Source: Poseidonia sp.
GTDB taxonomy: Archaea > Thermoplasmatota > Poseidoniia > Poseidoniales > Poseidoniaceae
Length of the DNA stretch: 64,000 nucleotides
Assembly (NCBI GenBank): GCA_038124565.1
Contig: JAYPCE010000003.1
Span: 5,910 to 69,909, forward strand
Direction of reading: 5' to 3'
Position 1 is the stretch's first letter, and every line of letters begins with the position of its first letter. The position numbers and the translations under genes were made by a program. Shown here in pieces: positions 689 to 17,584 of the stretch. The notes under the pieces are model-generated. The model was not told the origin of the DNA. It was given only the letters and a program-made list of their open reading frames with translations, and searched no databases.

Positions 689-2242
689 TTACTTGATGCG
701 TTCCATACGCTCTTGCTTTTGCTCGCCCACGTCGCGTAGCAAACGCTCTCGCAGTGCTTCGTGCAACCACATACCCTCGTCCAACTCCAGTAGCAAACCG
801 TGTTGGAGGAGGTTCGAGGGCGGTGGCCCATTCCATCCGATACTACCCGCCAACTTCTCCCATGGAATTGGTGCATGGGCCACGGCGAGCGTGGCCAACA
901 ACTCTTTTTCTTGCTCGGGCAATCGCGTTAGAATTTCTTCGTCCAAAAATCTCAGCCAGTCTTTGTGGGTGGGCTGACCGTACAGTTCAAGCAATTCCAA
1001 GGCCAAAGGATGGCCTCCAGTAGCCTGATGGATCTCTTCGGCAGCAGGAGATTCAGCGTTATCGAGAGAGAGCAACCACGCTTTAATGGCGTCCAAACTC
1101 AATCCCTTGAGCGGCATTTCACGCACCGTGTTACGAATGTGCACATCGCGTCGGTCGTAAACACTCAACTCCGTTCTCGAAACGAGCACCAACCGCAACG
1201 GTGCTTTTTGGGCGAGTTGCAACAGCGAACCGAGCAGGTGACGCGCATTTTCTGCGATATGGTGCACATCGTCAAGTACGATGAGCCAATAAGGCGGTGG
1301 CCCGCCAGCGCTGTCTTTGAACCGTTCACGAATGGTGTTTGCGTCCGTCATGTATGCCAGCAGACGCCGTCGCCATGCGTCAACGTCCATTTCACCTCCC
1401 GGCGTGAGCGGGAGCGTTTCGATGATGTTGTAGGGGTCATGGGATTCATCGATGCCAAAGCGGTGCAAGAGGCTGGTTGCCAACCCAAGGGCGCGGTCCC
1501 ATGGTTGACAGGTATACCAGCAAATGGAGAGGTAGGGGTCGTCTTCCATGTGTTGTTTCAACCAGTGTGCAACCAAGGTTGATTTTCCAATGCCTGCAAT
1601 ACCGTGGACGACCATGCAGGGGTGACGGTCACGAAACCATCCGTGCAAGGCGTCCAATTCAGCATCACGGCCGTACACAGGTCGGGTAACGGGAGGCTGG
1701 TTGGCGTAGGTTGCGTGAACACCGACCAGCGGTGTCAATCGTCCAGGTTGGGGCACTCCGTCGGCTTGCTCTGCTTTTTTGATGCTTCCAAATCGGATGT
1801 CGCCGTAGGTGAGCACGCCTTCGTGTTGGGCGTGTAAGAGAATTTGCAACAGGCTCAATTCTGTGGCCAACAACTCCGAGACTTCAGCGGCCTTCACTTC
1901 CAACAAGTCTCCGTCAAGATTTCGCACCAAGACCTTGGTTGAGTCCAACGCGGCTCGCCGCTGTTGGGCTTGAAGCCTGCCTTCATCGGTGAGTTGCCAT
2001 GTTTTTTGGCGGCGCTCATCACCTTGAACTGCTCGTGTGTGCTCTTCAACCAACGCCTCTCTCAACAAATCTCGCATCGTTCGGCTGACATTTGGGGGGT
2101 GTTGGGCACATGCTTCGGCGATGCCTGGGCGCGTCAAGGCGGGCGGGACCATGTAGCGGTCGGCCCATTGGTCGTTGGCTAAGAGGTGAAGCAGCACCCT
2201 GTCTTTGGCGGCGACGTTCACCTTCGGAATGTCACCGGCCAT
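689..2242 (-). CDS. STAND/AAA-type (Arch_ATPase-like) P-loop NTPase with N-terminal winged-HTH; ORF track extends to 2452 but ATG at 2242 (MAGDIPKVNV...) preferred
   Basis: Walker A GIAGIGKST, Walker B WLIVLDDVH. N-terminal region DRVLLHLLANDQWADRYMVPPALTRPGIAEACAQHPPNVSRTMRDLLREALVEE is wHTH-like. The 2452 extension would overlap the divergent gene at 2370 and its TATA. Confidence 0.6.
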   Translation of the reverse strand: MAGDIPKVNVAAKDRVLLHLLANDQWADRYMVPPALTRPGIAEACAQHPPNVSRTMRDLLREALVEEHTRAVQGDERRQKTWQLTDEGRLQAQQRRAALDSTKVLVRNLDGDLLEVKAAEVSELLATELSLLQILLHAQHEGVLTYGDIRFGSIKKAEQADGVPQPGRLTPLVGVHATYANQPPVTRPVYGRDAELDALHGWFRDRHPCMVVHGIAGIGKSTLVAHWLKQHMEDDPYLSICWYTCQPWDRALGLATSLLHRFGIDESHDPYNIIETLPLTPGGEMDVDAWRRRLLAYMTDANTIRERFKDSAGGPPPYWLIVLDDVHHIAENARHLLGSLLQLAQKAPLRLVLVSRTELSVYDRRDVHIRNTVREMPLKGLSLDAIKAWLLSLDNAESPAAEEIHQATGGHPLALELLELYGQPTHKDWLRFLDEEILTRLPEQEKELLATLAVAHAPIPWEKLAGSIGWNGPPPSNLLQHGLLLELDEGMWLHEALRERLLRDVGEQKQERMERIK

Positions 2243-2343
2243 GATGCTTGGTGAGGGTTTTGCTTGTTCAACGCTTGCCTGTTTGGTATGCGAAGTTTTC
2301 GTCGCGGTCGTTGATGCAAAAGTGCGCGTATAGACAACAACCC

Positions 2344-2350
2344 TTTTATG
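2344..2350 (+). promoter_or_regulatory. Putative TATA box (ttttatg) ~26 nt upstream of ATG 2370, consistent with a leaderless transcript
   Basis: Spacing typical for archaeal TATA/TSS in leaderless mRNAs. Confidence 0.35.
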
Positions 2351-2369: not shown

Positions 2370-5300
2370 ATGGCGAAAAACTCGGATTTGACATCACTTA
2401 ACCTCCGGACCTTTTCTTTGGTGTTGTGCGGCCTGATGTTGCTCTCAGCCATGCCCTTGGTGAGCGGCGCAGATTCCGATGGAGACGGGTTTGAAGACAG
2501 CGTTGATGACTGTCCATGGGCTTATGGAACATCGACCGTGGACAAGGATGGCTGTCCTGATCGTGACGGGGATGGCACGTCAGATGGAGCGGATGGTTGG
2601 ACCTCCAACAACCCAAATTTCAGCGAAGAATTTCACATCTCCAATCTCAATGCATACAGTATTGATCACAACGCTGACGGAACGCTTGCTGTCGCAGCCG
2701 TTGACGACCGTGTACGTATTTACAACGCTTCCACCTACACCACCGTTGTTTCCTCAGCCGACCTTGTTGATGGCAACAACGCCTACGTGACCAGCGTTGA
2801 CTGGAGCCCCGATGACATGTACGTCGCTGCGACCCTAACCGACGACACGGCCGTTGTCATGTGGGCGAGCAACCTCACGGTGATTCACGACGGCATCACG
2901 CATTCGGGCGATACCCGAACCTTCTCTGATGTCGCCTTCATGACCAACAGCACGTCGTTTGCTGTGGTGGACGAGAACGGTGGCGGCTGGGGCGGTGGAA
3001 ACTGCAACGGTTGTGCCGTGATGCTGGTGAGCGTGGAAGACGGCCAAATCTGGCGAGAGGTCAAGCCTGCAGGCAACAGCGGTTCGTATTCATCGGTCAC
3101 CTTTTCTCCAGACGGCAGCGTTATGGCCGTTGGTGGTGACGGCAATGCCTACCTCATTGAGACCAACAACTGGACCACGCTTCGAGCCCTCAATCCAGGA
3201 ACCGGGGAAAACGTCAACGGCATTGAGTTCTCACCGGATGGCACGATGGTGGGCTTGTGCACCCAAGCCAACATGAACGGCGCTCGCCTCCGAGCGTTCA
3301 ACACGGCGACGGGCGCTTCCATGCTCGACAAAACCTCCACGAGCTCATGCTATGGCGTTGATGTCTCTCCAGACAACACCCAAGTCGCCTACGCCATCGG
3401 CTACTACAGCACCGACGGGGGCTCGGTGCTGGTGTATGAACATACCACGGGCTTGTTGGTTGACCGCATCCAACTCGCACGCGGCAACAATGCGTGTTCG
3501 CAATTTGGTGGTCAGAATCCCTGCGGCGATGTGAACGGCGTTTCGTGGCATCCAGATGGGTACCACATCGTTGCTGCGGTTGACAGAAATTACGAGGGTG
3601 TGTACTTCCTGTTTGCTGATATCGACCCCGATAATGACGGTTACAACTCCACCGACCAGGGCGATGGTATCGTTGATGACTTCCCCGACGATGGCACCCA
3701 ATGGACCGATACGGACGGCGACGGCTACGGCGACAACCCAGCTCCAGCCAACCAACCCGATGCGTGCATCTCCGTCGCTGGTACGTCAACCGAAGACCGA
3801 TACGGATGCCCTGACGCTGACGGCGACGGATGGTCGGATGCCGGAGATTGGGCACCGTACAACCCCGACCAGTGGGTTGATGCTGATGGTGACGGCTACG
3901 GTGACAATTACCTGTACGAGGTAAATGAATACCAGTTCCATGTGAACCAGTCCGGTGATGCGTTCCCCAACGATGCAACCCAATGGAACGACACGGATGG
4001 CGACGGCTACGGTGACAATTACGAGAACGCCTCATGGACCTCCTATCGCCCAAGTGAATGGCCTGGCGTCTTGTTGACCTCAGCCAACGAACCAGACGCC
4101 TTCCCTCTTGACCGAACGCAGTACATGGACACAGATGGAGATTGGGTCGGCGACAACCCGAACAGCGATCGTGCTGATTTGTGCCCCAACCAATGGGGTG
4201 ATTCCCAGTACGACCGTCTCGGTTGTCCAGATGCTGACGGCGATGGGTACTCCGACCCCGATGCGGGGTGGCCAGCAACCACCGATTGCTTCGGAGCCGA
4301 TGCGTTCCCCGACGATCCTACGCAATGGTGCGATGAAGACAACGATGGATACGGGAGCAACGCCAACGGGAACAACCCCGATGATTGCCCTTCATCGGCC
4401 GGCACATCGTACATTGACCGAGCTGGTTGTGCCGACCGAGACGGCGATGGGTATTCCAACGCAGGCGACCCCTTCCCGGATGACCCAACGCAGTGGTCGG
4501 ACCGAGACGGCGATAACCGCGGCGACAACGCCAGCGGCAACAATCCCGACGCGTTCCCAGACGACACCTCGCAATGGAAGGACACCGACGGTGACGGTTA
4601 CGGCGACAATCCAGGAGGCAACAACGGGGACGCGTTCCCGACCGATTCGACGCAGTGGAGTGATGAGGACGGCGATGGCTACGGTGACAACGCTGAAGGA
4701 ACCGATGGAGACGTCTGCCCGATGGATTACGGTGAATCTCAGGAGCCCCTCAGCCGAGGATGTCCTGACAGCGATTTGGACGGCGTCACCGACCCGCTCG
4801 ATGCCTTCCCGAACGATCCTTTCCAGTGGGCCGATACCGATGGTGACGGCTATGGTGACAACACCAATGTCCCAAGCGGGGACGACTGTGTTGAAGAGTT
4901 TGGAAAATCGTTTGAAGAAGGTCGACAGGGTTGCCCCGACGCAGACTTGGACGGCTATGCTGATGTTGACGATGCCTTCCCAACCGACCACGAACAATGG
5001 GTGGACACCGATGGCGATGGCTATGGTGACAACTACTTCTGGGAGAACATCACGGTAGAAGATTCCGAAAACCCAGGCATGTTCATCACGTTGCGTGAAC
5101 AACGGGGCGACGCATTCCCCGATATTGCTTCGCAGTGGTCGGATATCGATGGTGATGGCTGGGGCGATAACACCAACAGTTCAAATCGCGTGGACAGTTT
5201 CCCGTTGCGCAACAGTCAATGGCTTGACTTTGACGGTGATGGCTTCGGCGATAATGTCACGGGTTACCAACCCGACATGTGTCAAAAAGTTCCCGGGACA

Positions 5301-5816
5301 TCAACTTCTGGCTTGGAGGAAGAATGGTATGGCTGTCCCGATGCTGATAGCGACGGTGTTGCCGATGATGCCGATGCCTGTCCATGGGACCCAGCATACT
5401 CGCTTGCGGCTGACAAGACCAAATGCACCATTACCAAAGATCCCAGTGCAAGCGGTAGCGAGGAGAACTCGGGCACCTTCTTGAGCGGAGAAACGAACAC
5501 CTTGGTCTGGATGGGCGGCGTGATTATCTTCATGCTCGCCCTCATCATCGTCGCTCAAGTTTCACGGGCTGCTGGAAAGCGCAAGGCGGTGGCGGCCAAG
5601 CGAGAGGAGATGATGGTCCAAGCCTCATTTGCCGAGGAAGAGGAACGCCGTCAAGCATGGATTCAGCATTACATTGCTGAAGGGAATTACGCCGAAGCCC
5701 GAGCCTTAGGGTGGGAAGGTACGGAAGGCTTGCCTGAGTGGAAACAATACGAGATGCAGCAGCAAGCCGCGCAAGAAGCAGCCATTCCCTCCATGTTGGA
5801 TTTGGACAGCCCCTAG
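2370..5816 (+). CDS. Large Ca-binding surface protein A: signal peptide, short N-terminal TSP3-like repeats, PD40/TolB-like beta-propeller, ~20 thrombospondin-type-3-like repeats, C-terminal TM anchor, conserved Trp-rich cytoplasmic tail
   Basis: N-terminus MAKNSDLTSLNLRTFSLVLCGLMLLSAMPLVSGA is signal-like. Blade motifs VDWSPDDMYVAAT, VTFSPDGSVMAVGG, IEFSPDGTMVGLC, VDVSPDNTQVAYA, VSWHPDGYHIVAA (SPDG signature). Repeats of form FPxDxTQWxDTDGDGYGDN / CPDADGDGWSD. TM LVWMGGVIIFMLALIIVAQV then tail ...RRQAWIQHYIAEGNYAEARALGWEGTEGLPEWKQYEMQQQ. Many N-x-S/T sequons. Confidence 0.9.
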   Translation: MAKNSDLTSLNLRTFSLVLCGLMLLSAMPLVSGADSDGDGFEDSVDDCPWAYGTSTVDKDGCPDRDGDGTSDGADGWTSNNPNFSEEFHISNLNAYSIDHNADGTLAVAAVDDRVRIYNASTYTTVVSSADLVDGNNAYVTSVDWSPDDMYVAATLTDDTAVVMWASNLTVIHDGITHSGDTRTFSDVAFMTNSTSFAVVDENGGGWGGGNCNGCAVMLVSVEDGQIWREVKPAGNSGSYSSVTFSPDGSVMAVGGDGNAYLIETNNWTTLRALNPGTGENVNGIEFSPDGTMVGLCTQANMNGARLRAFNTATGASMLDKTSTSSCYGVDVSPDNTQVAYAIGYYSTDGGSVLVYEHTTGLLVDRIQLARGNNACSQFGGQNPCGDVNGVSWHPDGYHIVAAVDRNYEGVYFLFADIDPDNDGYNSTDQGDGIVDDFPDDGTQWTDTDGDGYGDNPAPANQPDACISVAGTSTEDRYGCPDADGDGWSDAGDWAPYNPDQWVDADGDGYGDNYLYEVNEYQFHVNQSGDAFPNDATQWNDTDGDGYGDNYENASWTSYRPSEWPGVLLTSANEPDAFPLDRTQYMDTDGDWVGDNPNSDRADLCPNQWGDSQYDRLGCPDADGDGYSDPDAGWPATTDCFGADAFPDDPTQWCDEDNDGYGSNANGNNPDDCPSSAGTSYIDRAGCADRDGDGYSNAGDPFPDDPTQWSDRDGDNRGDNASGNNPDAFPDDTSQWKDTDGDGYGDNPGGNNGDAFPTDSTQWSDEDGDGYGDNAEGTDGDVCPMDYGESQEPLSRGCPDSDLDGVTDPLDAFPNDPFQWADTDGDGYGDNTNVPSGDDCVEEFGKSFEEGRQGCPDADLDGYADVDDAFPTDHEQWVDTDGDGYGDNYFWENITVEDSENPGMFITLREQRGDAFPDIASQWSDIDGDGWGDNTNSSNRVDSFPLRNSQWLDFDGDGFGDNVTGYQPDMCQKVPGTSTSGLEEEWYGCPDADSDGVADDADACPWDPAYSLAADKTKCTITKDPSASGSEENSGTFLSGETNTLVWMGGVIIFMLALIIVAQVSRAAGKRKAVAAKREEMMVQASFAEEEERRQAWIQHYIAEGNYAEARALGWEGTEGLPEWKQYEMQQQAAQEAAIPSMLDLDSP
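3597..5400 (+). repeat. Coding tandem array of thrombospondin-type-3-like calcium-binding repeats (D-x-D-x-D-G-x-x-D / QW-D-TDGDGYGDN) in protein A
   Basis: Repeated DTDGDGYGDN, DADGDGWSD, DRDGDGYSN, DEDNDGYGSN units visible in translation. Causes long antisense ORF artefacts (3298..4278, 4392..5102 etc). Confidence 0.85.
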
Positions 5817-5839
5817 CCTTCCAAATTCCAACAATTTTG

Positions 5840-5850
5840 ATATATTATAC
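5840..5850 (+). promoter_or_regulatory. Putative TATA box (atatattata) ~20-26 nt upstream of ATG 5867 of protein B
   Basis: AT-rich box in the short gap between paralogs A and B; implies B has its own promoter and a leaderless mRNA. Confidence 0.4.
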
Positions 5851-5866
5851 GTTATTGTCGCTGTGC

Positions 5867-8800
5867 ATGGTTCGCCTTCAAGCGGTCAGCATCATCTGCT
5901 TTCTGCTCCTGCAAACGGCGGTTCTACCCACGGCTGGAGCAGTGGATGCAGACGGCGATGGCATTGACGATGCATTGGATGACTGCCCCCACGCATCGGG
6001 CGATTCCACGGTGGATCGTCAAGGCTGCCCCGACAAAGACGGTGATGGGCGTTCGGACCTCAACGATGCATGGACTTCACGGTACCCAAGTTTCTCTCTT
6101 GATGCAACACTCACCGCGACGACCGATGTGTTTGATGCAGCCTATTCTCCTACGGGCGAGTTCGTTGCCATTCGTGAAAATCAATATGTGAAAATCTACA
6201 ACGTTTCTACCCAAACGTTGCTCCAGACCAGCGCTCAAATTTCGAGTTCGTGGTGGGGCAACCGCTTATCTTGGAGTCCCGATGGCACCATGCTCGCGGC
6301 CTCCATTTCCTCAGGCGTCAACATTTACTGGACCTCAAACCTCACCGAAATCCAAACGGCCATTGCCCCCACTGACCCAGGAACCGTGCGCGATGTGGCG
6401 TTTTTTCCCAATGGCAGCGGCTTCATTGCAGTAGGAGAAGGGTGGGGGTCCAACAGTGGGAAGGTCTACGCAGCCAATGCGGTGAACGGTACGATCTGGC
6501 ATTCCTTCCAACCCAACAACGAGTCGTCCTTCTCCTCCGTCGCCCTCTCTCCCGATGGAAGCCGTGCTGCAGTTGGCGGAGATGGCGTCGTTTATGTCAT
6601 CAACACCTCTTCGTGGCAGGTGACCCGAACCATCAACCATGGCTCACAAAATGTAAGGGGCGTGGATATTTCTCCCGACGGGAATTGGATCAGTGCCTGC
6701 GATGATACGGGGCTTGCCTACCAAAGCACAGTTCTTCGGGTCTGGGGCTTGGACAACGGGACCCAAGTCATGGCCAAAACCGGGACTTCCCGATGCAGCG
6801 AGACCCGGTTCTCACCTGATGGAAGTCAAGTAGGGTATTCCTTCCACTTTTACACCGATGACGCTGCATCGGTGACCATCTATCACATCAACTCGAATTC
6901 ATTGGTGACCCGCCTGAGTGCTCGGCCCACAGGCGACCCATGCACCGACACAACTGCGCCCCCGAATGTATGTGGGAGAATGTACGGGTTTGACTGGCAC
7001 CCCAACGGGTTGGACATTATCTCGGTGATGGGGCAAGACAACGAAGGCGTGTATTTCTGGTCGTCCAATTTGGACCCCGACAACGACGGGTGGAACACCT
7101 CCGACCAAGGGGACGGCAGAGTGGATGCCTTCCCCGATGAATCAACCCAATGGAACGACACAGATAGCGACGGGTACGGTGATAACCCTTCGCCAGCCTT
7201 CCAACCCGATGCTTGTCCGTCTGTTCAAGGAAATTCAACCGAGGACAGGTTTGGTTGTCCAGATGGCGATGGTGACGGTTGGTCGGATGCAGGCGACTGG
7301 GCGCCCAACGATGCTTTGCAGTGGCTTGACACTGATGGGGACGGTCATGGAGACAACTACCACTTTGAATTGGACGCCTATCAATTCCATCTCAACCAGA
7401 CCGGCGATGCCTTCCCCAACGATCCAACCCAGTGGAACGATACTGATGGTGACGGCTACGGGGATAACTTTGCGAATGCATCATGGACAACATACAGACC
7501 CGTAACATGGCCAGGAGAGTGGCTGAGCGTCGCTGTCATGCCAGATACTTTCCCCCTTGACCGTACGCAATGGAACGATACTGACGGAGATTGGTACGGT
7601 GACAACCAATTTGGCTCTCGTGTGGATGCGTGCCCTACCGAATGGGGCGATTCAGAAGTGGACCGCTTGGGTTGCAAGGATAGCGATGGGGACGGCTATT
7701 CTGACCCGACGATGGATTGGCCGGCTACCACAGATTGCTACGGGGCCGATGCTTTCCAAAACGATGCCACGCAGTGGTGTGATGAGGACAACGATGGGTT
7801 TGGTAGCAACCCCAACGGCAACACGCCCGATGATTGCCCGTCAACGGCAGGAACATCAACGATTGACCGATATGGTTGCGCAGACCGTGACGGCGATGGA
7901 TATTCCAACGCAGGTGACCCATTTCCCGATGACCCCACTCAATGGTCGGACCGAGACGGTGACAACCGCGGGGATAATGCCAGCGGAAACAACCCCGACG
8001 CTTTCCCTGACGACACCTCGCAATGGAAGGACAGCGACGATGATGGCTACGGAGACAACCCAGGAGGGACCAACGGAGACACATACCCAAATGACCCGAC
8101 CCAATGGAGCGATACAGACGGTGATGGATACGGCGACAATCCAAACGGAACTGAGGGCGATGTGTGTCCACTCGAATACGGCGAATCCTTTGATGAAGAC
8201 ACCCGGGGTTGTCCCGACAGCGATCTTGACGGTGTGACCGACCCGTTGGACGTGTTTCCCGATGACCCGTTCCAATGGGCCGATGCTGACGGTGATGGGT
8301 ACGGTGACAACACGAACGTACCGAGTGGTGATGCATGTGTTGAGGTCTTTGGGACCTCGACTGAAGCCGGTCGTTTAGGGTGTCCCGATAGCGATGTTGA
8401 CGGATATGCTGACCTTGATGATGCGTTCCCTAACGATCCTGAACAGTGGACGGACACCGATGGCGATGGTTACGGTGACAATTACTTCTGGGAAAACACC
8501 ACTGTAGAAGACAGCGAAAACCCTGGAATGTACATCACCCTGCGTGACCAGCGCGGTGACGCCTTCCCAGAGATCGCTACCCAATGGTCCGACATGGATG
8601 GTGACGGTTGGGGCGATAACGACAACAGCTCCAACCGAGTAGATAACTTCCCGCTCCGCGCTTCGCAATGGCTTGATTTTGACGGAGATGGGTACGGTGA
8701 CAATGCCGTGATGGGCGCCTATCAACCGGACGCTTGTCCGCTCGTTCCTGGGACATCGGTCACTGGTCTTGATGCGGTTTACTTCGGGTGTCCCGATGCT

Positions 8801-9268
8801 GATAACGACGGCGTTTCCGATGATGCAGACCAGTGCCCTTGGGACCCTATGTACGCCACCTTGGCTGACAAAGCGAAGTGCACCATTCTCTCCGACCCGA
8901 CCTTGATGTCAAACGAAGAATATGCAGATGACTTGGCCGGTGGCGGTAACTTGCTCCTGTACGTTGGCGGCATCATTGCGTTCTTGCTGGCCCTGAACAT
9001 CGTCGCCCAAGTCTCGCGGGCGGCTGGGGCGCGAAAAGCGGTCGCCACACGCGAAGAAGAAGAACGACTGAAAGCAGAAGCAAACGATGAGGAAGAGCGA
9101 CGCCAAGCATGGATTCAACATTATATCAGCCAAGGGAACTTTGCTGAAGCCAGAGCGCTAGGTTGGGAAGGTACCGAGGGGTTGCCTGAGTGGAAACACT
9201 ATGAAATGCAGCAACAAGAAGCCCAAGAAGCATCCATTCCTCAGATGTTTGACCTCGATAATCTGTGA
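5867..9268 (+). CDS. Large Ca-binding surface protein B (tandem paralog of A; ORF track start 5738 overlaps A, ATG 5867 MVRLQAVSIICFLLL... preferred)
   Basis: Same architecture as A. Propeller region is divergent (~30-35% identity by eye). Repeat stalk ~75% identical with a 50-aa block identical to A. TM LLLYVGGIIAFLLALNIVAQV and tail ...RRQAWIQHYISQGNFAEARALGWEGTEGLPEWKHYEMQQQ. Confidence 0.9.
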   Translation: MVRLQAVSIICFLLLQTAVLPTAGAVDADGDGIDDALDDCPHASGDSTVDRQGCPDKDGDGRSDLNDAWTSRYPSFSLDATLTATTDVFDAAYSPTGEFVAIRENQYVKIYNVSTQTLLQTSAQISSSWWGNRLSWSPDGTMLAASISSGVNIYWTSNLTEIQTAIAPTDPGTVRDVAFFPNGSGFIAVGEGWGSNSGKVYAANAVNGTIWHSFQPNNESSFSSVALSPDGSRAAVGGDGVVYVINTSSWQVTRTINHGSQNVRGVDISPDGNWISACDDTGLAYQSTVLRVWGLDNGTQVMAKTGTSRCSETRFSPDGSQVGYSFHFYTDDAASVTIYHINSNSLVTRLSARPTGDPCTDTTAPPNVCGRMYGFDWHPNGLDIISVMGQDNEGVYFWSSNLDPDNDGWNTSDQGDGRVDAFPDESTQWNDTDSDGYGDNPSPAFQPDACPSVQGNSTEDRFGCPDGDGDGWSDAGDWAPNDALQWLDTDGDGHGDNYHFELDAYQFHLNQTGDAFPNDPTQWNDTDGDGYGDNFANASWTTYRPVTWPGEWLSVAVMPDTFPLDRTQWNDTDGDWYGDNQFGSRVDACPTEWGDSEVDRLGCKDSDGDGYSDPTMDWPATTDCYGADAFQNDATQWCDEDNDGFGSNPNGNTPDDCPSTAGTSTIDRYGCADRDGDGYSNAGDPFPDDPTQWSDRDGDNRGDNASGNNPDAFPDDTSQWKDSDDDGYGDNPGGTNGDTYPNDPTQWSDTDGDGYGDNPNGTEGDVCPLEYGESFDEDTRGCPDSDLDGVTDPLDVFPDDPFQWADADGDGYGDNTNVPSGDACVEVFGTSTEAGRLGCPDSDVDGYADLDDAFPNDPEQWTDTDGDGYGDNYFWENTTVEDSENPGMYITLRDQRGDAFPEIATQWSDMDGDGWGDNDNSSNRVDNFPLRASQWLDFDGDGYGDNAVMGAYQPDACPLVPGTSVTGLDAVYFGCPDADNDGVSDDADQCPWDPMYATLADKAKCTILSDPTLMSNEEYADDLAGGGNLLLYVGGIIAFLLALNIVAQVSRAAGARKAVATREEEERLKAEANDEEERRQAWIQHYISQGNFAEARALGWEGTEGLPEWKHYEMQQQEAQEASIPQMFDLDNL
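7066..8850 (+). repeat. Coding tandem array of TSP3-like Ca-binding repeats in protein B
   Basis: As for protein A; antisense ORF artefacts 7725..8336, 7856..8275, 8047..8457, 8375..8725. Confidence 0.85.
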
Positions 9269-9325
9269 TTTTTACGCATGGTTTGCACCGCTGTCCTTTC
9301 AAAGGGGAAGCGACCATGTTTTCAC

Positions 9326-11899
9326 ATGGGCGAGAAGCCGACAGGCCGACTTTTGTTGGTGGCGGGGTTGCTTATGGCTTCCCTCTTGGTCGGTTTCGCT
9401 TCAGCTACGTTGAGCGATGTGCGCCTTGAAACCGAAGTGAGTGAGGCCCTCGGGCAGCCTTGGTACGATGCTGACCAACCCCTCGTCTTCACACCGACCA
9501 TGTACAATGATGGTGACACCGCCGTGACCGTTCCTATGAACCCGGATTGCCGTTTCGTGTTGAATGTTTACAACGAAAGCGGCGTCATGGTGGTCGACGG
9601 TGATGCGTTGTGCCCAGATAAAGAGCAAGGCCAAGACTTCTTTGCCGGAGAAAACCACACATTTGACGCCGTGGAATGGGGGATGAAAGATGCTGAGGGT
9701 GAATGGCTGCAAAGCGGCACCTACACGGTTGAATTGATGCATACCAAGACCGGCCTTACTCAACACGTTGTTGCCACGGTCCAAACACCGGTCACGCTTC
9801 CCGACGGGTTGACTTACTCAGTGGAATGGATGCAGCGAACGGCGGAGGCCGACGGTGCTTGGGTGGGCTTGGTCAGCCTGCACAACCCCACCGCCCAAGC
9901 GGTTGACCTTGACCTTCTTCCTGCGTGTTCGATGGAAGTCCGAATCGGTACAGAGTCTCGCCTTGGCGCCCCCTGCTTTGGAGAAGTTGAGACACTGATG
10001 CCCGGCGAAGTGATGCTCGTTGACCAACTGGTGGTTGCCTCACCCGAAACGCTGGATGTCCGCATTTCAACGCCCGGCAAGTCCTTTGTCCATGCACAAA
10101 CCTTGCAGGGCCTCACCGGGCCGATGGCGCTCCAAGCCACACCATCGCTTGCCCTCAACACCAACGAAGCACGGGCCTTCGGCCAGGGCGATGTTCTCGT
10201 CAGTGAACTTCTGTTGACCAGCACCAGCCTCGAAGACCAAACGATGGCCTTCACATCCACATGCAAGGCAGAACTTTGGGTGCTCGACGATTTGGGTCAT
10301 GTGGTGTTCGACTCACGCGCTGACAAAACGTGTCAGACCATTGAGCTCGAAGATTCACTCAAAGCCGACTCTCCCATGACCTTTACATTGCCACAATGGG
10401 GCTTCTTTGACAACGATGGCTGCCGTGTTCAGCCGGGAACCTACACCGTTGTCGCTGAACTCCCTGAATTCAACCTCGCCACCCTGCAGACGGTGGAGTA
10501 CAGAGATGCCGAGGCCAATCCTTGCACCTCGTCCTCTTCGCTGACATTGGAGGCGACTTCGTCGTGGTTGGATGAAGACACCTTGCAGGTCAGCACGGTG
10601 ATGTCCAACGAAGGCGATGCTCACTATCTTCGGATGGTACAACCGTGCACTTACGCGTTGGACTTTGTTGACACCTCGGGCGTCTCGGTTCACCGGTTCC
10701 AAGCCCTGTGCGGCGAATACGATGGACGCAAGGTGTTTGTTCCCAGCGGTGCAGCGGCCTTGATGTTTGATGTGCTTGAGGTGGAGATGGTGCAAAACGG
10801 TCAGCCATTGCTACCCGATGGCTTCTACACCCTTGAGGTCACCATGTTCGCCTCGTCCGATGTGGTCGCCACCATCGACCTTGCTTGGCCTGAAACCTTC
10901 ACGGAGGACGTGAATACCGAACCCGAAGAAGAACAACCCGTCCTCAATTCATACGAACTTACTGGCACTTGGATGGGACTCTTGACCGAGACCGGCACAT
11001 GCTATGTGATGGAAGTCGGCGACTCCACAGTTTTGCTCTCCCACGCACGAACCCTGCCTTCCTGGACGCCAAACGGTGCTGTGCAAGGTATCTACGAAGT
11101 CGTAGACACGACCCCTTCGCCTGCGTGTGCCACCTTTTCCGCACCTTCCGTTGAAGTGGTGGAGGTCTTGATGGAACAACCTCTTGCTCAAGAACAACAG
11201 GAATCGGTTGCAGAGACGGTGCTGGTGGAAGAAGACCCTGAGGTGGCGATTGACCCCGTGGTTCCGGTTGTGACGGTGATTGTGACGGCTTCAGTGCTCT
11301 CCATCTTGGGTATCGTGGTGGCCACGAACGAAGGGTTGAGGCTACCGGCCACCATGGCTGGCTTGTGGTTCATCGGCCTGTTGGGCAAAACGCATGAGAC
11401 CACCGACGGGCGGTATCAGCGAGGCCGATTGATGGGGTACCTCACGGCCAATCCGGGCTGTCACTTCCGTGCCTTGATGAGTGCCCTTGACATGAGCAAT
11501 GGACAAATTACGCATCATTTGCGAGTACTGGAAGCCGAAGAAAACGTGTGGCGAAAGAACGATGGACGCTTGGTTCGCTATTACCCGCTGACCAACCAGT
11601 TGCATCCAAACACCGCTGACGATGACCTTCCTGTACCGCCGCTTTCACCAGACCCGAACAGTCTGCAGGGCAAGATCTTGAATCTGCTCGACCACGACGG
11701 GGAATTGGGTCAATTCCCGACCCAAGCAGAATTGGCCAAGCGTCTTGAGAAGAGCCAGCAATTGATTTCTCACCACCTGCGAACATTGCAGAAGTATGGT
11801 TTGGTTGAACGGCGAAAGATGGGCGTGATGAATCGCTACAAGTTGACTCGCGAAGCCATCTTCCTGCTCGAGACAAGCGATGATTTCGGCCAAAACTGA
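9326..11899 (+). CDS. Single-pass membrane protein: signal peptide, four Cys-paired extracellular beta-sandwich-like repeats, TM, two cytoplasmic winged-HTH (ArsR/MarR-like) domains; putative membrane-tethered transcription regulator (ORF track start 9278)
   Basis: MGEKPTGRLLLVAGLLMASLLVGFASA signal. Four repeats each with a Cys pair (NPDCRF...ALCPD; LPACSMEV...APCFGEV; TSTCKAEL...DKTCQTIEL; VQPCTYAL...QALCGEY). TM VVPVVTVIVTASVLSILGIVVA. Two wHTH units: RGRLMGYLTANPGCHFRALMSALDMSNGQITHHLRVLEAEENVWRKNDGRLVRYYPLT and QGKILNLLDHDGELGQFPTQAELAKRLEKSQQLISHHLRTLQKYGLVERRKMGVMNRYKLT. Confidence 0.85.
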   Translation: MGEKPTGRLLLVAGLLMASLLVGFASATLSDVRLETEVSEALGQPWYDADQPLVFTPTMYNDGDTAVTVPMNPDCRFVLNVYNESGVMVVDGDALCPDKEQGQDFFAGENHTFDAVEWGMKDAEGEWLQSGTYTVELMHTKTGLTQHVVATVQTPVTLPDGLTYSVEWMQRTAEADGAWVGLVSLHNPTAQAVDLDLLPACSMEVRIGTESRLGAPCFGEVETLMPGEVMLVDQLVVASPETLDVRISTPGKSFVHAQTLQGLTGPMALQATPSLALNTNEARAFGQGDVLVSELLLTSTSLEDQTMAFTSTCKAELWVLDDLGHVVFDSRADKTCQTIELEDSLKADSPMTFTLPQWGFFDNDGCRVQPGTYTVVAELPEFNLATLQTVEYRDAEANPCTSSSSLTLEATSSWLDEDTLQVSTVMSNEGDAHYLRMVQPCTYALDFVDTSGVSVHRFQALCGEYDGRKVFVPSGAAALMFDVLEVEMVQNGQPLLPDGFYTLEVTMFASSDVVATIDLAWPETFTEDVNTEPEEEQPVLNSYELTGTWMGLLTETGTCYVMEVGDSTVLLSHARTLPSWTPNGAVQGIYEVVDTTPSPACATFSAPSVEVVEVLMEQPLAQEQQESVAETVLVEEDPEVAIDPVVPVVTVIVTASVLSILGIVVATNEGLRLPATMAGLWFIGLLGKTHETTDGRYQRGRLMGYLTANPGCHFRALMSALDMSNGQITHHLRVLEAEENVWRKNDGRLVRYYPLTNQLHPNTADDDLPVPPLSPDPNSLQGKILNLLDHDGELGQFPTQAELAKRLEKSQQLISHHLRTLQKYGLVERRKMGVMNRYKLTREAIFLLETSDDFGQN

Positions 11900-14822: not shown

Positions 14823-17489
14823 TCATTCGGCTTCATCAATGGATGCCGGGCGTGGCGGAGGGATCTTTGTGACCGTATCAAGCGGTGGACCTGGCCGTTG
14901 GTTATTGGTGTAGATGGCCAGCCCAACAACCACCAAGGCAAGCAAGAACAGCCATCCAGCAAGCCCCCAACCCTCGTCCTCTGTGTTGGATGAAGGGGAA
15001 AGACCGCTGGCGTCACACCCTTGTTGGTCCACAACGGCATTGGCTGCTGAATTCAGACAGAAGTCATAGGCATTGACCACACCGTCACCATCGTCATCCA
15101 GTTGGAATTGACTGCATCCATTCGATGAAATTTGGTCTGCTGGGTCCGAGCGCGGACATTCATCCAACGGGTCAAGCACCCCGTCTTGGTCGTCATCATC
15201 GTCCTCCACGGCATCAATGCAGCCGTCACCGTCCATGTCCTGACCGGCTTGCGCAACGCCAAGCATTCCTTTCGGACATCGGTCAACGCCGTCCAGTACC
15301 CCATCGTTGTCGTCGTCGCCGTCTTCGGTAGCGTCAGCACATCCGTCGTTATCGTGGTCCATGGAGGCAGCATCAGCGATCCAATTTTTCGCACCAAGCG
15401 GGCACGCATCATCAACATCCAACACGCCATCGTCATCGTCGTCTTCATCCATTGTCTCGTCCATACAACCGTCCCGGTCGTAATCGTTCAAGTTGATTGA
15501 AATCCACGGCGTGAGGTCGTTGGGGCAATTGTCATCGGGAATGGTAATCCCGTCCCCGTCTTTATCGGCATCACAGAGGTCACCGATGCCATCGTTGTCC
15601 AAATCGGCTTGGGTGGGGTTGGCTACAGCAGGACAATTGTCTGCCTGGTCCACGAACCCGTCGCCGTCAGCGTCAATATCCGCACAACCATCGGCCTCAA
15701 TGTCGTTCTCTTCATCGGAAATCCAACCAACGGGGCCTTTGGGACACAGGTCGTTGGTGTCAAAGATACCATCTTCATCATCATCCAAATCTTCGGTCGC
15801 GTCTCGGCATCCATCGCCGTCGTGGTCTGAGTTACTGTTGGCCAGCCAACCGACTTCGCCGCTCGGGCAATCGTCGTTCAGGTCGGCAACCCCGTCGCCA
15901 TCATCGTCGTCGTCGCACTCGTCACCAAAGGCATCTCCATCCAAGTTGGCTTGGTCAGGGTTGGCCAGTTTCGGACAATTGTCAACACCGTCCAGCACCC
16001 CATCCAAATCAAGGTCGGTTTCGTACAACCAAACGCCCATGTCAAGTTGATTGCGTTGGTCAAAGGTGTGTCCGCCATACGTACCGTCAGCGTTCGCATT
16101 GAAGGCGACCACAGGTGAACCCGTGGCGCTGAAGATCAAGTCCGTAGCGAGGTCGTTACCTGGACCCCCACCAGAGATGGCCCAGTCCCACGCTCCGCTG
16201 GCTTGGCGTTGGGCAAGGAACACATCGAAGTGGTTTCCATCGTTGATGCCATCGATATCGGTCAATGTGTATTCACCCAAGATGATGCTCCCCGTGGTTT
16301 CTCCGACCACGACGGTATCGCCTTGGTCCGAGACGTGAACGTCTTTCACGCGGTCGGCTCCGTTCCCACCGAATCCAGCGGCATGCAACCATTCGCCCGA
16401 AGGAGAGAGATGCGCTTCGTAGAAATCAATCCAAACGGCATCATCAACGGCATGTACACCAAATGTGAGGTTCTGCAAATAATCCCCGACCACACTGATG
16501 CCGCCTCCGGGCCGTCCGGCGCAGGCGACCGCCGTGGTGTCATCAGACCCGCCTGCTTGGGCTACCCACTGCCAACTTGCCGTTGAATAACTGCCCACAG
16601 CTACGTTGAGCCCGCCGGTGCTGTTGACCTCATGTTCACCAAAAATCACCATGTCCATGAAACTTGTAGCAAAGTAAGTTTGGCCAGTGGTGTCTTTGCA
16701 CAAGGAACCGGTGTCGTCCAGCGCTTGGGTGGAAAAGACGGTGTGGAGGCCAATCAAACTCCCTTGGTCGTCCATCATCAACAAAGCCACCGCCTCTTGA
16801 GTAACGCTGGCGGGAGAGGTGAGGTTGTTAACGACGAGTTCACCACGGTGCAAGACGGCCAGATGGATCTCATCGTTTTGCGTGACCATAAGGTCAACCA
16901 CCATCATTTGGTAGGGGTTGGAAAAGGATGTGGCCCAAACCCACTCACCGTTGGGTGTCATGGTCGCCAAAAACACGGCGTTTTCGTCGTCGTTAGCGCT
17001 TTTGTTGATGGGGTCAAGGTCGCCAAGTGTCAGGTTGCACGGGTCGCCTAGCGTCATGTCACAATAGGTTCCAGCGACAACGATGGTGCCGTCGCTCAGC
17101 GCTGCCATGGCGGCAATGTTGTCCAAGCCGGAACTGCTGCCGTTGGCGCTGTAGCTCCAATTCCCTTCTTCATCAATCCAACCGATGAAGAAATCAACGC
17201 CAAATGATGAATCCTCGCTTGAGAATCCGATAACATCGCCATCGAAGGCTATGTTTTGTTCAAACGAACCGGCCACGATGATGGAGCCGTTTGAAAGCGG
17301 GACCATGGAGGACACTTGTTCGCTACTTGACCCACTTGCACTGGCCAGCCAACCTGAGGTGTTTTCTTCCCCGGTCAACAGAGGGCCGTCGTTATTGAGG
17401 GTCACTGCATCGCCGTACTGAACCAGCGGCATAGTGGAAAATCCAAGCAGGGCTGCCGCCAAGAGGACATGGAGCACCGTAAAGCGCAT
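14823..17489 (-). CDS. Large Ca-binding surface protein C: signal peptide, beta-propeller-like N-terminal region, TSP3-like repeat array, C-terminal TM anchor (ORF track start 17537; ATG 17489 MRFTVLHVLLAAALLG preferred)
   Basis: Repeats DLDLDGVLDGVDNCPKLANPDQANLDGDAFGDECDDDDDGDGVADLNDDCP... in canonical TSP3 form (D-x-D-x-D-G-x-x-D-x-x-D-N-C-P). TM GWLFLLALVVVGLAIY. Short P-rich tail. Stop codon abuts leuS stop (convergent). Confidence 0.9.
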   Translation of the reverse strand: MRFTVLHVLLAAALLGFSTMPLVQYGDAVTLNNDGPLLTGEENTSGWLASASGSSSEQVSSMVPLSNGSIIVAGSFEQNIAFDGDVIGFSSEDSSFGVDFFIGWIDEEGNWSYSANGSSSGLDNIAAMAALSDGTIVVAGTYCDMTLGDPCNLTLGDLDPINKSANDDENAVFLATMTPNGEWVWATSFSNPYQMMVVDLMVTQNDEIHLAVLHRGELVVNNLTSPASVTQEAVALLMMDDQGSLIGLHTVFSTQALDDTGSLCKDTTGQTYFATSFMDMVIFGEHEVNSTGGLNVAVGSYSTASWQWVAQAGGSDDTTAVACAGRPGGGISVVGDYLQNLTFGVHAVDDAVWIDFYEAHLSPSGEWLHAAGFGGNGADRVKDVHVSDQGDTVVVGETTGSIILGEYTLTDIDGINDGNHFDVFLAQRQASGAWDWAISGGGPGNDLATDLIFSATGSPVVAFNANADGTYGGHTFDQRNQLDMGVWLYETDLDLDGVLDGVDNCPKLANPDQANLDGDAFGDECDDDDDGDGVADLNDDCPSGEVGWLANSNSDHDGDGCRDATEDLDDDEDGIFDTNDLCPKGPVGWISDEENDIEADGCADIDADGDGFVDQADNCPAVANPTQADLDNDGIGDLCDADKDGDGITIPDDNCPNDLTPWISINLNDYDRDGCMDETMDEDDDDDGVLDVDDACPLGAKNWIADAASMDHDNDGCADATEDGDDDNDGVLDGVDRCPKGMLGVAQAGQDMDGDGCIDAVEDDDDDQDGVLDPLDECPRSDPADQISSNGCSQFQLDDDGDGVVNAYDFCLNSAANAVVDQQGCDASGLSPSSNTEDEGWGLAGWLFLLALVVVGLAIYTNNQRPGPPLDTVTKIPPPRPASIDEAE
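15140..16130 (-). repeat. Coding TSP3-like Ca-binding repeat array in protein C
   Basis: Consecutive D-x-D-x-D-G-x-x-D...C-P units; produces antisense ORFs 15132..15500, 15493..16050. Confidence 0.8.
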
Positions 17490-17584
17490 GCCTTTGGATA
17501 GAAGTCCTGCATAAGAACCTCGCGTGCTGGCGTGCATCCACCTACGGGGGAGGCTTCATTGAGTGTCGCCGATGCAATCCTCTC

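Follow-up and report, generated by a model that had tools for sequence, protein, structure and literature searches.

Archaeal surface proteins in which a seven-bladed β-propeller stands on a repeat region are known from Methanosarcina mazei, where YVTN propellers are combined with PKD repeats. The analogy of these proteins to metazoan adhesion receptors was reportedly already drawn by Jing et al. in 2002. A comparable design is encoded by Poseidoniales (Marine Group II), the uncultured and dominant archaea of the sunlit ocean. The locus described here lies within 64,000 nucleotides (nt) of a Poseidonia sp. contig (JAYPCE010000003.1, positions 5,910 to 69,909; ‘the window’ below is this whole stretch). 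It consists of two adjacent genes, A and B, which are intact, presumably separately promoted tandem paralogues of an uncharacterised Poseidoniales family of type-I membrane surface proteins. That the family comprises surface recognition or adhesion proteins with a modular specificity head is considered probable, though not strongly so, as a whole package; confidence in the architecture and evolution is higher than in this package, and confidence in the function lower. The two genes, with lengths in amino acids (aa), are:

2370..5816, forward strand: gene A, ATG start, 1148 aa, intact open reading frame (ORF); type-I membrane surface protein with an A-type head
5867..9268, forward strand: gene B, ATG start, 1133 aa, intact ORF; paralogue with a B-type head

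Unlike the M. mazei proteins, the A/B family has a propeller of the WD40 and not the YVTN class, and a stalk of Ca-type DxDxDG loops instead of PKD or β-helix repeats. It also has a transmembrane (TM) anchor with a conserved cytoplasmic tail, and its taxon is the Poseidoniales.

The original prediction, made for this DNA from its letters and translations, had likened the layout to integrin α or thrombospondin. The topology agrees with the analogy: integrin α shares the type-I orientation, distal seven-bladed propeller, long leg, single TM helix, short conserved tail and DxDxDG-like Ca sites. The defining parts do not. The propeller of A and B is WD40 rather than FG-GAP, the DxDxDG sites lie in the leg, outside the propeller, and the leg is nearly without β structure in the AlphaFold2 (AF2) model, with no Ig-like thigh or calf. 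The tail is without GFFKR and there is no β-subunit-like gene in the conserved neighbourhood. Thrombospondin and COMP have Ca2+ sites strung on an Asp-rich wire of DxDxDG-type loops stapled by disulfides, to which the stalk would correspond by its motifs. The stalk unit D-x-[CF]-P-x-[DN]-x2-Q-x-D-x-D-x-D-G-x-G-D reads as a TSP3 repeat with Cys changed to Phe/Trp. In Pfam searches, however, A and B are without TSP_C, EGF and coiled-coil domains, and their repeats lie between a propeller and a TM helix and are not wrapped on a lectin domain.

The bacterial TSP3-type repeats of Capnocytophaga gingivalis OmpA (5wtl) have the same DxDxDG loops, alternating with C-P...G-C-P-D-x-D-G-D-G units, and both chains are without regular secondary structure. 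The main unit of the stalk differs from 5wtl and from Pfam TSP3 in being Cys-free and undetected by the Pfam models. The stalk is also ~600 aa long with fixed, position-specific units, two hairpin inserts and unit-by-unit conservation across the order. It would form the extracellular stalk of an archaeal type-I protein, whereas the OmpA repeat is a periplasmic linker to the OmpA domain.

In their evolution, the closest parallels are the streptococcal M and M-like proteins and the heads of trimeric autotransporters, which also combine a conserved stalk or anchor with exchangeable distal heads and offer homology for recombination, for duplication in tandem and for exchange between lineages. These families differ in domain of life, folds and anchoring. 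The A/B locus, in contrast, is core and syntenic and not an accessory island, and its tested heads are under purifying, not diversifying, selection. What is new here is an uncharacterised order-wide family, an unusual stalk repeat and the dynamics of its head cassettes; it is not a new kind of molecular machine. In the literature searched on thrombospondin, WD40, S-layer and metaproteomics of MGII/Poseidoniales, no description of this family was found. ‘Thrombospondin genes’ are mentioned, without analysis, as widespread in Poseidoniales and possibly involved in adhesion (PMC6461757; echoed in PMC8821943).

The gene pair and its WD40 heads

The ORF lister had placed the start of gene B at a GTG at 5738, which was rejected as it lies inside the end of gene A and overlaps it. 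From the first ATG (5867) the product has a hydrophobic N-terminus of the typical kind, and this start leaves an A-B spacer of 50 nt. The proteins are 61% identical over their full length (BLASTP, E = 0). Two adjacent paralogues of 1130-1150 aa with the same architecture had been predicted, and this description holds, with intact same-strand ORFs that each encode a head (all-β with 28 strands in the model of A), a DxDxDG stalk, a TM segment and a tail. The closest homologue of A is a 99%-identical protein in a public JGI contig. Orthologues of gene B occur at two other loci, as P0037/L085b (head 94%) and P0061/L3b (head 94%).

Mis-assembly is a well-known hazard of tandem repeats, and databases contain few B-type heads; both could speak for an assembly artefact or for a decaying duplicate. 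A homologue search with the B head alone gave 16 weak WD40 matches and missed the known orthologues P0037 and P0061, probably through its prefilter. Against such an origin of the pair, the proposed check for frameshifts and pseudogenisation found no stop or frameshift in either gene, and every invariant column of the 84-sequence family alignment is kept in both. The B orthologues are under strong purifying selection, and the same tandem pair with the same spacer length (50 nt) is present at locus L085, in an independent assembly of ~83% nt identity. The stalk and tail DNA of A and B is 71% identical and the head DNA less so, a divergence at which an assembler could not collapse or duplicate them. 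Artefact or decay is therefore extremely improbable and is effectively refuted.

Identity between the two proteins varies by region. Sliding 50-aa windows, with overall values from the family alignment, give 29-51% in the head (aa ~75-400 or ~85-405; 35-36% overall), 64-96% in the stalk (aa ~420-1000; 78% overall) and 55-70% at the TM and juxtamembrane region (55-84% for windows of TM plus tail), with 78% over the last 63 aa of the tail. Stalk and tail had been described as 75-100% identical, which is accurate for protein (78% for each) and not for DNA, where the 71% is accompanied by a third-codon-position identity of 0.34-0.62 and a saturated proportion of synonymous differences (Nei-Gojobori pS 0.74-0.77). 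With the stalk DNA this divergent, conservation between A and B is at the protein level and not the product of recent gene conversion. Recent A-B conversion in the window is ruled out by the third-position identity, by the saturated pS and by the longest identical run, 25 nt, which is within the permutation expectation (95th percentile 28 nt). It is further ruled out by the equal divergence of A/B and of their L085 counterparts, L85a/L85b.

The N-terminal half of the proteins contains the following features:

2370..2468, forward strand: gene A signal peptide, aa 1-33, hydrophobic core 15-33, ...PLVSG followed by ADSDGDG (cleavage site judged by eye); hydropathy peak 1.96
2472..2594, forward strand: gene A N-terminal Cys-clamped Ca-type unit, aa 35-75, DSDGDG...C48...C62PDRDGDG
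2619..3617, forward strand: gene A head, seven-bladed WD40 β-propeller (predicted), aa 84-416
6092..7066, forward strand: gene B head, WD40 β-propeller (predicted), aa ~76-400; aligns with the A propeller over its full length

A hydropathy scan confirms the expected hydrophobic, signal-like segment at the N-terminus of both proteins; in A it is helical at aa 11-27 of the AF2 model. Short N-terminal TSP3 repeats were also expected. One Cys-clamped Ca-type unit is present, in which D35, D37, D39, C48, C62, D64 and D68 are invariant in 84 sequences, and its Pfam TSP_3 score (16.4 bits, aa 34-49) is under the gathering score of 25.

The head was predicted to be a β-propeller, and the fold is upheld by the models. 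Full-length A, modelled on 84 family sequences, has a mean predicted local distance difference test (pLDDT) score of 79.4, and aa 84-416 are predicted as 28 strands (7 blades x 4) at a pLDDT of ~85-95. When the head model was searched against the PDB by Foldseek, the top matches were the prokaryotic 5yzv, WDR5, G-beta and RACK1 (target TM-score 0.8-0.88, E 1e-21 to 1e-18), with 0.85-0.88 to seven-bladed WD40 domains. The proposed PD40/TolB class, in contrast, is not supported. Pfam WD40 (PF00400) scores 49.6 bits on A and 44.0 bits on B, above its gathering score of 27, whereas PD40 (PF07676) does not match A and gives B 16.4 bits, below the gathering score of 20.9. TolB (TIGR02800) gives B 26.8 bits against a cut-off of 343, YVTN (TIGR02276) reaches 14 bits against 27.85, and no FG-GAP (integrin) family is among the Pfam matches at E <= 0.01. 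The PD40/TolB, YVTN and FG-GAP classes were rejected in favour of WD40 on these scores and the Foldseek result. Many models of WD40-propeller families match the heads at E 1e-9 to 2e-19, below their own family cut-offs, among them Beta-prop_THOC3 on gene B (E 2e-19). Four propeller Cys (C297, C327, C376 and C385) are invariant in 84 sequences and, together with 13-18 N-x-S/T sequons, fit an extracellular location.

Stalk, membrane anchor and cytoplasmic tail

The C-terminal parts of the two proteins are laid out as follows:

3624..5429, forward strand: gene A stalk, aa ~419-1020; ~600-aa acidic array, ~18 DxDxDG loops, two β-hairpin inserts
7073..8884, forward strand: gene B stalk, aa ~403-1006; unit order and inserts as in A, 78% identical
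5499..5567, forward strand: gene A TM helix, aa 1044-1066; hydropathy 2.62, AF2 helix from 1045
5568..5813, forward strand: gene A cytoplasmic tail, aa 1067-1148, ~82 aa; helical in the model
8951..9265, forward strand: gene B TM helix and tail, TM aa 1029-1051 (hydropathy 2.49), tail aa 1052-1133
5631-5690: tail motif core, aa 1088-1107 of gene A, with an equivalent in B; acidic-RR stretch before it; also in P0138, P0141, P0154, P0161 and P0187/P0196

A motif parse gives 19-20 DxDxDG-type loops per protein, and ~18 of the 20 in A fall in the stalk, which is 21% Asp with a net charge of -131. The Cys-free unit D-A-F-P-x-D-x2-Q-W-x-D-x-D-G-D-G-Y-G-D-N alternates with a Cys-pair unit, C-P-x3-G-x-S-x2-D-R-x-G-C-P-D-x-D-G-D-G. 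Outside the propeller the ectodomain contains eight conserved Cys pairs, one in the N-terminal unit (C48/C62) and seven in the stalk region (C466/C480, C605/C619, C673/C687, C783/C798, C840/C855, C971/C989 and C1004/C1019). The invariant stalk columns of the family alignment are D/G/C/W/Q. Folded alone by AF2, the stalk has a mean pLDDT of 90.1 and nearly no secondary structure besides the two hairpin inserts, which is what a metal-organised ‘wire’ would look like. From the motifs, the stalk would be expected to bind many Ca2+ ions and act as a stiff spacer. The Ca2+ concentration of seawater is ~10 mM.

A TSP3-like stalk of ~600 aa had been claimed, and the DxDxDG array and a possible remote TSP3 similarity agree with this, while membership of the Pfam family does not hold. 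Pfam TSP_3 (PF02412) and TSP3_bac (PF18884) yield zero families on the stalks of A (612 aa) and B (600 aa) even at E <= 10. This negative is meaningful, as the same TSP_3 model scores 86.5 bits on the protein encoded at 14823-17537, 5 kb away. A profile of 34 stalks searched against the PDB has a sole match, the repeat region of 5wtl (E 1.4e-5), which is also the only Foldseek match of the stalk model (E 8e-7, 38% identity over ~140 columns, rmsd 8 Å). Aligned by hhalign to the family of the TSP_3-positive protein, the stalk profile gives 92% probability and E 6.6e-7; the extreme Asp/Gly composition may inflate all these remote-similarity scores. Eukaryotic thrombospondin and COMP structures gave no match at E <= 10, by sequence or by Foldseek. 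The stalk is probably a divergent TSP3-like array, at the remote or structural level only, and is not a member of the Pfam TSP_3 family.

The QWxDxDGDGxGDN stalk is also used by several other Poseidoniales families with different heads and tails (loci L043-L083, e.g. L052 3685-, L043 6001- and L072 5443-). Such users include TM-anchored proteins of ~800 aa and ~1870-1900 aa with Pro-rich tails and a ~1015-aa WD40-headed protein with a tail ending ...GGGWDEIEMRK. This suggests a common ‘stalked’ cell-surface design in Poseidoniales.

Hydropathy detects one segment near the C-terminus of each protein, in agreement with the predicted single TM helix. The linker before it in gene A (aa ~1021-1043) is of low confidence, with an AF2 pLDDT of <50 at 1027-1050. 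Directly after the helix is a K/R-rich stretch (SRAAGKRKAVAAKR in gene A), from which, by the positive-inside rule, a cytoplasmic tail and type-I topology may be deduced. The tail had been put at ~55 aa, which is too short: hydropathy and AF2 give ~82 aa after the helix.

In gene A the tail motif reads EEEERR-x2-W-I-x-H-Y-I-x2-G-x4-A-R-x-L-G-W, followed by P-x-W-K and a C-terminal I-P-x-M-x-D-L-D. Over 29 species it becomes EEEERR-x2-W-I-x-[HY]-Y-V-x2-G-x4-A-x2-L-G-W, P-x-W-[KQ] and the same C-terminus, with R, R, W, Y, G, A, L, G, W and P invariant in the 29 tails. No Pfam model matches the tail. When the 81-aa tail was searched by phmmer against 1.84 billion representatives, only 73 proteins were returned, of which ~50 are not fragments of the family. 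These unrelated proteins contain 1-8 tandem copies of W-[IV]-x-[YH]-Y-[VIL]-x2-G-x4-A-[RK]-x-L-G-W; several combine it with IQ (calmodulin-binding) motifs or with PH domains, and a haptophyte protein (Scyphosphaera apsteinii, MMETSP1333) is a member of one cluster. With such recurrence the motif looks like an undescribed small interaction module, which may be common to Poseidoniales and marine eukaryotes. In the surface proteins the tail presumably binds an intracellular partner.

Distribution, head types and recombination

Among the candidates scored, 2458 homologues of gene A fall below E 1e-3, with lengths of 1115-1196 aa. All named homologues are from Poseidoniales (Poseidonia, Poseidoniaceae) and are labelled ‘hypothetical protein’ or ‘WD40 repeat protein’. 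With one genome per GTDB species, >538 relatives were found, essentially all from metagenome-assembled genomes (MAGs) of Poseidoniales, a few of them Thalassarchaeaceae. A search of viral contigs found no relatives. The gene order is thioredoxin, an ATPase of AAA_16/STAND type with a winged helix-turn-helix (wHTH) on the reverse strand, the family gene, a membrane protein with helix-turn-helix (HTH) domains, LeuRS and a TSP_3 surface protein on the reverse strand. It is shared, with a single family gene, by ~40 species representatives; two copies are present only in the window, L003 and L085. A bacterial origin, suggested by the labels of two MAGs, was rejected as mis-binning. The contigs L005 (NZEQ01000060.1, Verrucomicrobiales label) and L012 (CALDQY010000039.1, Rhodobiaceae label) carry the complete Poseidoniales gene order, and the LeuRS of L005 is 79% identical to that of the window, so both are likely binning contaminants.

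A core gene that is syntenic and nearly always single-copy across the order would also suit an envelope-structural protein. Here the family would be a major component of the cell envelope and form an S-layer-like canopy or spacer, with Ca2+-loaded stalks as pillars and propellers as the outer surface, and head variation would be surface-antigen turnover rather than ligand specificity. The TM-anchored proteins of ~800, 1015 and 1870-1900 aa with the same stalk are in keeping with such a role, as are the polysaccharide-synthesis and glycosyltransferase genes a few kb upstream in related loci and the 13-18 N-glycosylation sequons. Archaeal surface or S-layer-type proteins with β-propeller domains are known, reportedly from the work of Jing et al. 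in 2002 (said to be in Structure 10:1453). A variable outer part on a conserved anchor also recalls the SlaA/SlaB pair of the Sulfolobales. However, heads of only 30% identity, or two heads per cell, are hard to fit into one regular lattice, and a long conserved tail with a specific motif is atypical of S-layer anchors. A structural role is unlikely, although it is among the stronger alternatives.

The pattern of a variable head on a constant stalk, for which related genomes had been proposed as a check, is general in the family. The heads of 119 full-length homologues form 7 clusters at 50% identity, and are thus of at least 7 types. In 57 pairs of homologues the heads are <= 40% identical on stalks of >= 85% (27-31% and 85-89%, respectively, in those listed), and converse pairs have heads of 94-98% identity on stalks of only 71-72%. 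Across 19 loci the identity of stalk and tail to A follows that of LeuRS (Spearman 0.82 and 0.89), whereas head identity does not (rho 0.39, not significant) and is flat at 30-36% unless the head is A-type. At 77-81% LeuRS identity, stalks are 81-89% identical to A and heads either 72% or 34%. The ratio of nonsynonymous to synonymous substitution (dN/dS), covering two head types only, is 0.07 for the head of A vs L037 and 0.03 (0.027) for that of B vs L3b. The original prediction of heads evolving on a conserved scaffold is thus correct as to the variable head and constant stalk. Strong purifying selection within the two head types indicates, however, that the heads are old, discrete, functional types that are reassorted and do not drift fast.

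Another explanation for this mosaic is that the head is mainly a target, i.e. a receptor for Poseidoniales viruses (or a site for grazers or epibionts), with types kept by negative frequency-dependent selection as a constant-diversity defence. In marine microbes, loci for phage receptors and surface antigens typically show discrete types and lateral exchange. The head split of 72% or 34% among close genomes would fit such a locus, as would the presence or absence of B within one genus and the movement of a head cassette between lineages (both described below). On the other hand, selection within the tested head types is strongly purifying, the residues show nothing of an arms race, and no homologues or decoys were found in viral contigs. 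As the principal role of the head this is improbable, to about the same degree as the structural one, and it is compatible with the preferred explanation of a recognition or adhesion protein.

In L085, the orthologous pairs A/L85a and B/L85b are 90-97% identical in all regions. Stalk identity is 78% between A and B and 77% between L85a and L85b, which places the separation of the two genes in this lineage before the split of the window and L085. L086 and L037, close relatives with A-type genes of 82-83% identity to A, are without B; as B is present in L085, it was gained or lost within a genus.

L003 (GCA_038106355.1) is more distant. Its upstream gene L3a is 50% identical to A in the head, 66-74% in the stalk and 54% in the tail and, excluding the B-like part, the L003 genes are 50-74% identical to A. 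On this short-read MAG contig, a stretch of 1,822 nt is exactly the same in the two tandem copies; it begins at ~codon 540 and ends 27 nt short of the stop codon. The final 9 codons of L3a give SMLDLDNP*, the A-type ending of the window lineage (SMLDLDSP*, SMLDLDNP*), and L3b has its own TMLNLDDL*. From the last 9 codons of the upstream copy through the spacer into the B-type 5′ half, up to ~codon 540, nt identity to the A end, spacer and B of the window reaches 98% in sliding segments of 50 columns, and the B-type N-terminal half is 90-97% identical in protein among B, L85b and L3b. These breakpoints are most simply read as the recombination of a donor fragment, through stalk and tail, into the resident single-copy gene of L003. 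The fragment would have run from the end of an A-type gene across the spacer and a B head to the end of the stalk's first third. This event would have duplicated the resident distal stalk, TM and tail.

It is possible, if rather doubtful as a joint claim, that the stalk-TM-tail DNA is a recombination scaffold for gain, loss and lateral exchange of WD40 head cassettes at one core locus, and that the tail motif is an undescribed module shared with haptophyte IQ/PH-domain proteins. If true, these archaea would have a cassette system by which surface specificities are switched or stacked, and the L003 junctions would be a snapshot of such an event.

In the preferred explanation, the signal peptide would export the protein and one C-terminal TM helix would anchor it, with the WD40 propeller borne at the tip of a very acidic, ~600-aa array without secondary structure. 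The ~20 DxDxDG loops of this array, stapled by Cys pairs, would presumably be stiffened by seawater Ca2+. The ~82-aa helical tail with its invariant W..YY..G....A..LGW motif would presumably bind its partner inside the cell. The head would be the specificity module, with at least 7 old discrete types (<50% identity), on a stalk and tail that follow the species tree. The DNA of stalk and tail would serve as homology arms for duplication, exchange and transfer of head cassettes between lineages. The two head types of the window genome would then provide two specificities, on scaffolds that have long evolved separately.

Several points weigh against this explanation. That the protein lies at the surface, takes up Ca2+ and binds a ligand is deduced from models, motifs and topology rules. 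It is a little unexpected for an adhesin tied to a niche to be encoded by a syntenic core gene in single copy, which suits an envelope-structural role as well. The window itself shows no trace of recent A-B exchange, and the 100% identity of the 1.8-kb repeat in L003 is possibly exaggerated by assembly collapse of the short reads. The four distinct junctions of L003 nevertheless require the tandem arrangement.

Promoter elements, neighbouring genes and significance

Two promoter-like boxes precede the pair:

2341..2349, forward strand: promoter-like box CCCTTTTAT, 21-29 nt upstream of the gene A ATG; archaeal TATA-like
5837..5849, forward strand: AT-rich promoter-like box TTGATATATTATA, 18-30 nt upstream of the gene B ATG, in the 50-nt spacer

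In >25 orthologous loci a box of the form CCTTTTAT/CCTTTATA/CCTAATAA, preceded by an A-rich stretch, is found ~20-27 nt before the ATG of the first family gene. The gene A box would fit an archaeal B recognition element (BRE)/TATA, and its mRNA is probably leaderless or short-leadered. The box of gene B is partly kept in the equivalent spacer of L003 (TTGAAATATCATA). The claim that each gene has its own TATA-like element is in line with these boxes, and independent promoters for A and B are plausible. A conserved CCTTTCAAA box also lies upstream of the downstream HTH membrane protein gene. As a side observation, a CCTTT[TC]A[TA] box recurs ~20-30 nt upstream of the starts of three different genes (2341-2349, 9295-9303 and orthologue upstream regions) and may be a typical Poseidoniales BRE/TATA signature of mostly leaderless transcripts.

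The pair is flanked by two genes with DNA-binding domains:

9326..11899, forward strand: downstream neighbour, membrane protein with HTH; ~620-aa BsuPI-like ectodomain, one TM, two cytoplasmic winged-helix domains
689..2242, reverse strand: upstream neighbour, divergent from gene A; AAA_16/STAND-type ATPase with N-terminal wHTH, Pfam AAA_16 58.7 bits

The downstream protein matches Pfam HTH_HVO_0163_N (52 bits), HTH_5 (ArsR-type) and BsuPI, and has hydrophobic segments at aa 25-43 and 664-682. Its conserved upstream box and the lengths of its orthologues make M17 (9326) the likely start, and not 9278, as in the longest ORF. The product is a putative membrane-tethered transcription factor. The ATPase likely starts at M71; its orthologues are syntenic and of 516-518 aa. 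In its longest form (to 2452) the ORF would run into gene A; with the M71 start there is no overlap. The ATPase is fast-evolving, with ~40% identity where LeuRS has ~80%.

This neighbourhood raises the prospect that the family protein is a transmembrane signalling receptor, in which a ligand signal at the head would pass through the TM and tail to the HTH membrane protein or the STAND ATPase-wHTH and change transcription. The tail motif is invariant across the order, its occurrence as a repeat in unrelated proteins fits a protein-interaction module, and synteny with the membrane-anchored HTH protein and the STAND-type ATPase extends to ~40 loci. Synteny alone, however, is no proof of interaction. 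The protein has no defining integrin feature, and a single-pass protein with a flexible repeat stalk of 600 aa offers no evident route for a conformational change. The HTH neighbour is 56-60% identical to the window copy whether the adjacent head is A-type or other, with no co-variation with head type seen. In L004 an opposite-strand gene separates it from the family gene, and each has its own promoter-like box. Signalling is therefore quite unlikely, more so than a structural role or that of a target.

Two other surface proteins are encoded in the window. The gene at 14823-17537 (reverse strand), convergent with LeuRS and syntenic in L001, L002 and L004, encodes a 904-aa stalked protein with a signal peptide, an N-terminal domain of ~490 aa without a Pfam match, Cys-rich TSP_3 repeats (86.5 bits), a TM helix and a tail that is short and Pro-rich. 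The KO-annotated ‘thrombospondin genes’ of the literature probably include this gene. At 57420-62714 (reverse strand), an ORF of 1764 aa with PA14 and Laminin_G_3 (concanavalin-like lectin) domains encodes a very large, putative carbohydrate-binding surface protein.

The A/B family probably encodes one of the main surface displays of Poseidoniales cells, and so bears on the cell envelope of these archaea and their attachment to particles or phytoplankton. The ectodomains are concrete candidates for work on ligand, Ca2+ and virus binding. The head types are possible ecotype markers beyond the resolution of 16S or average nucleotide identity (ANI), and the family as a whole is a clean natural example of domain-level recombination in archaea.

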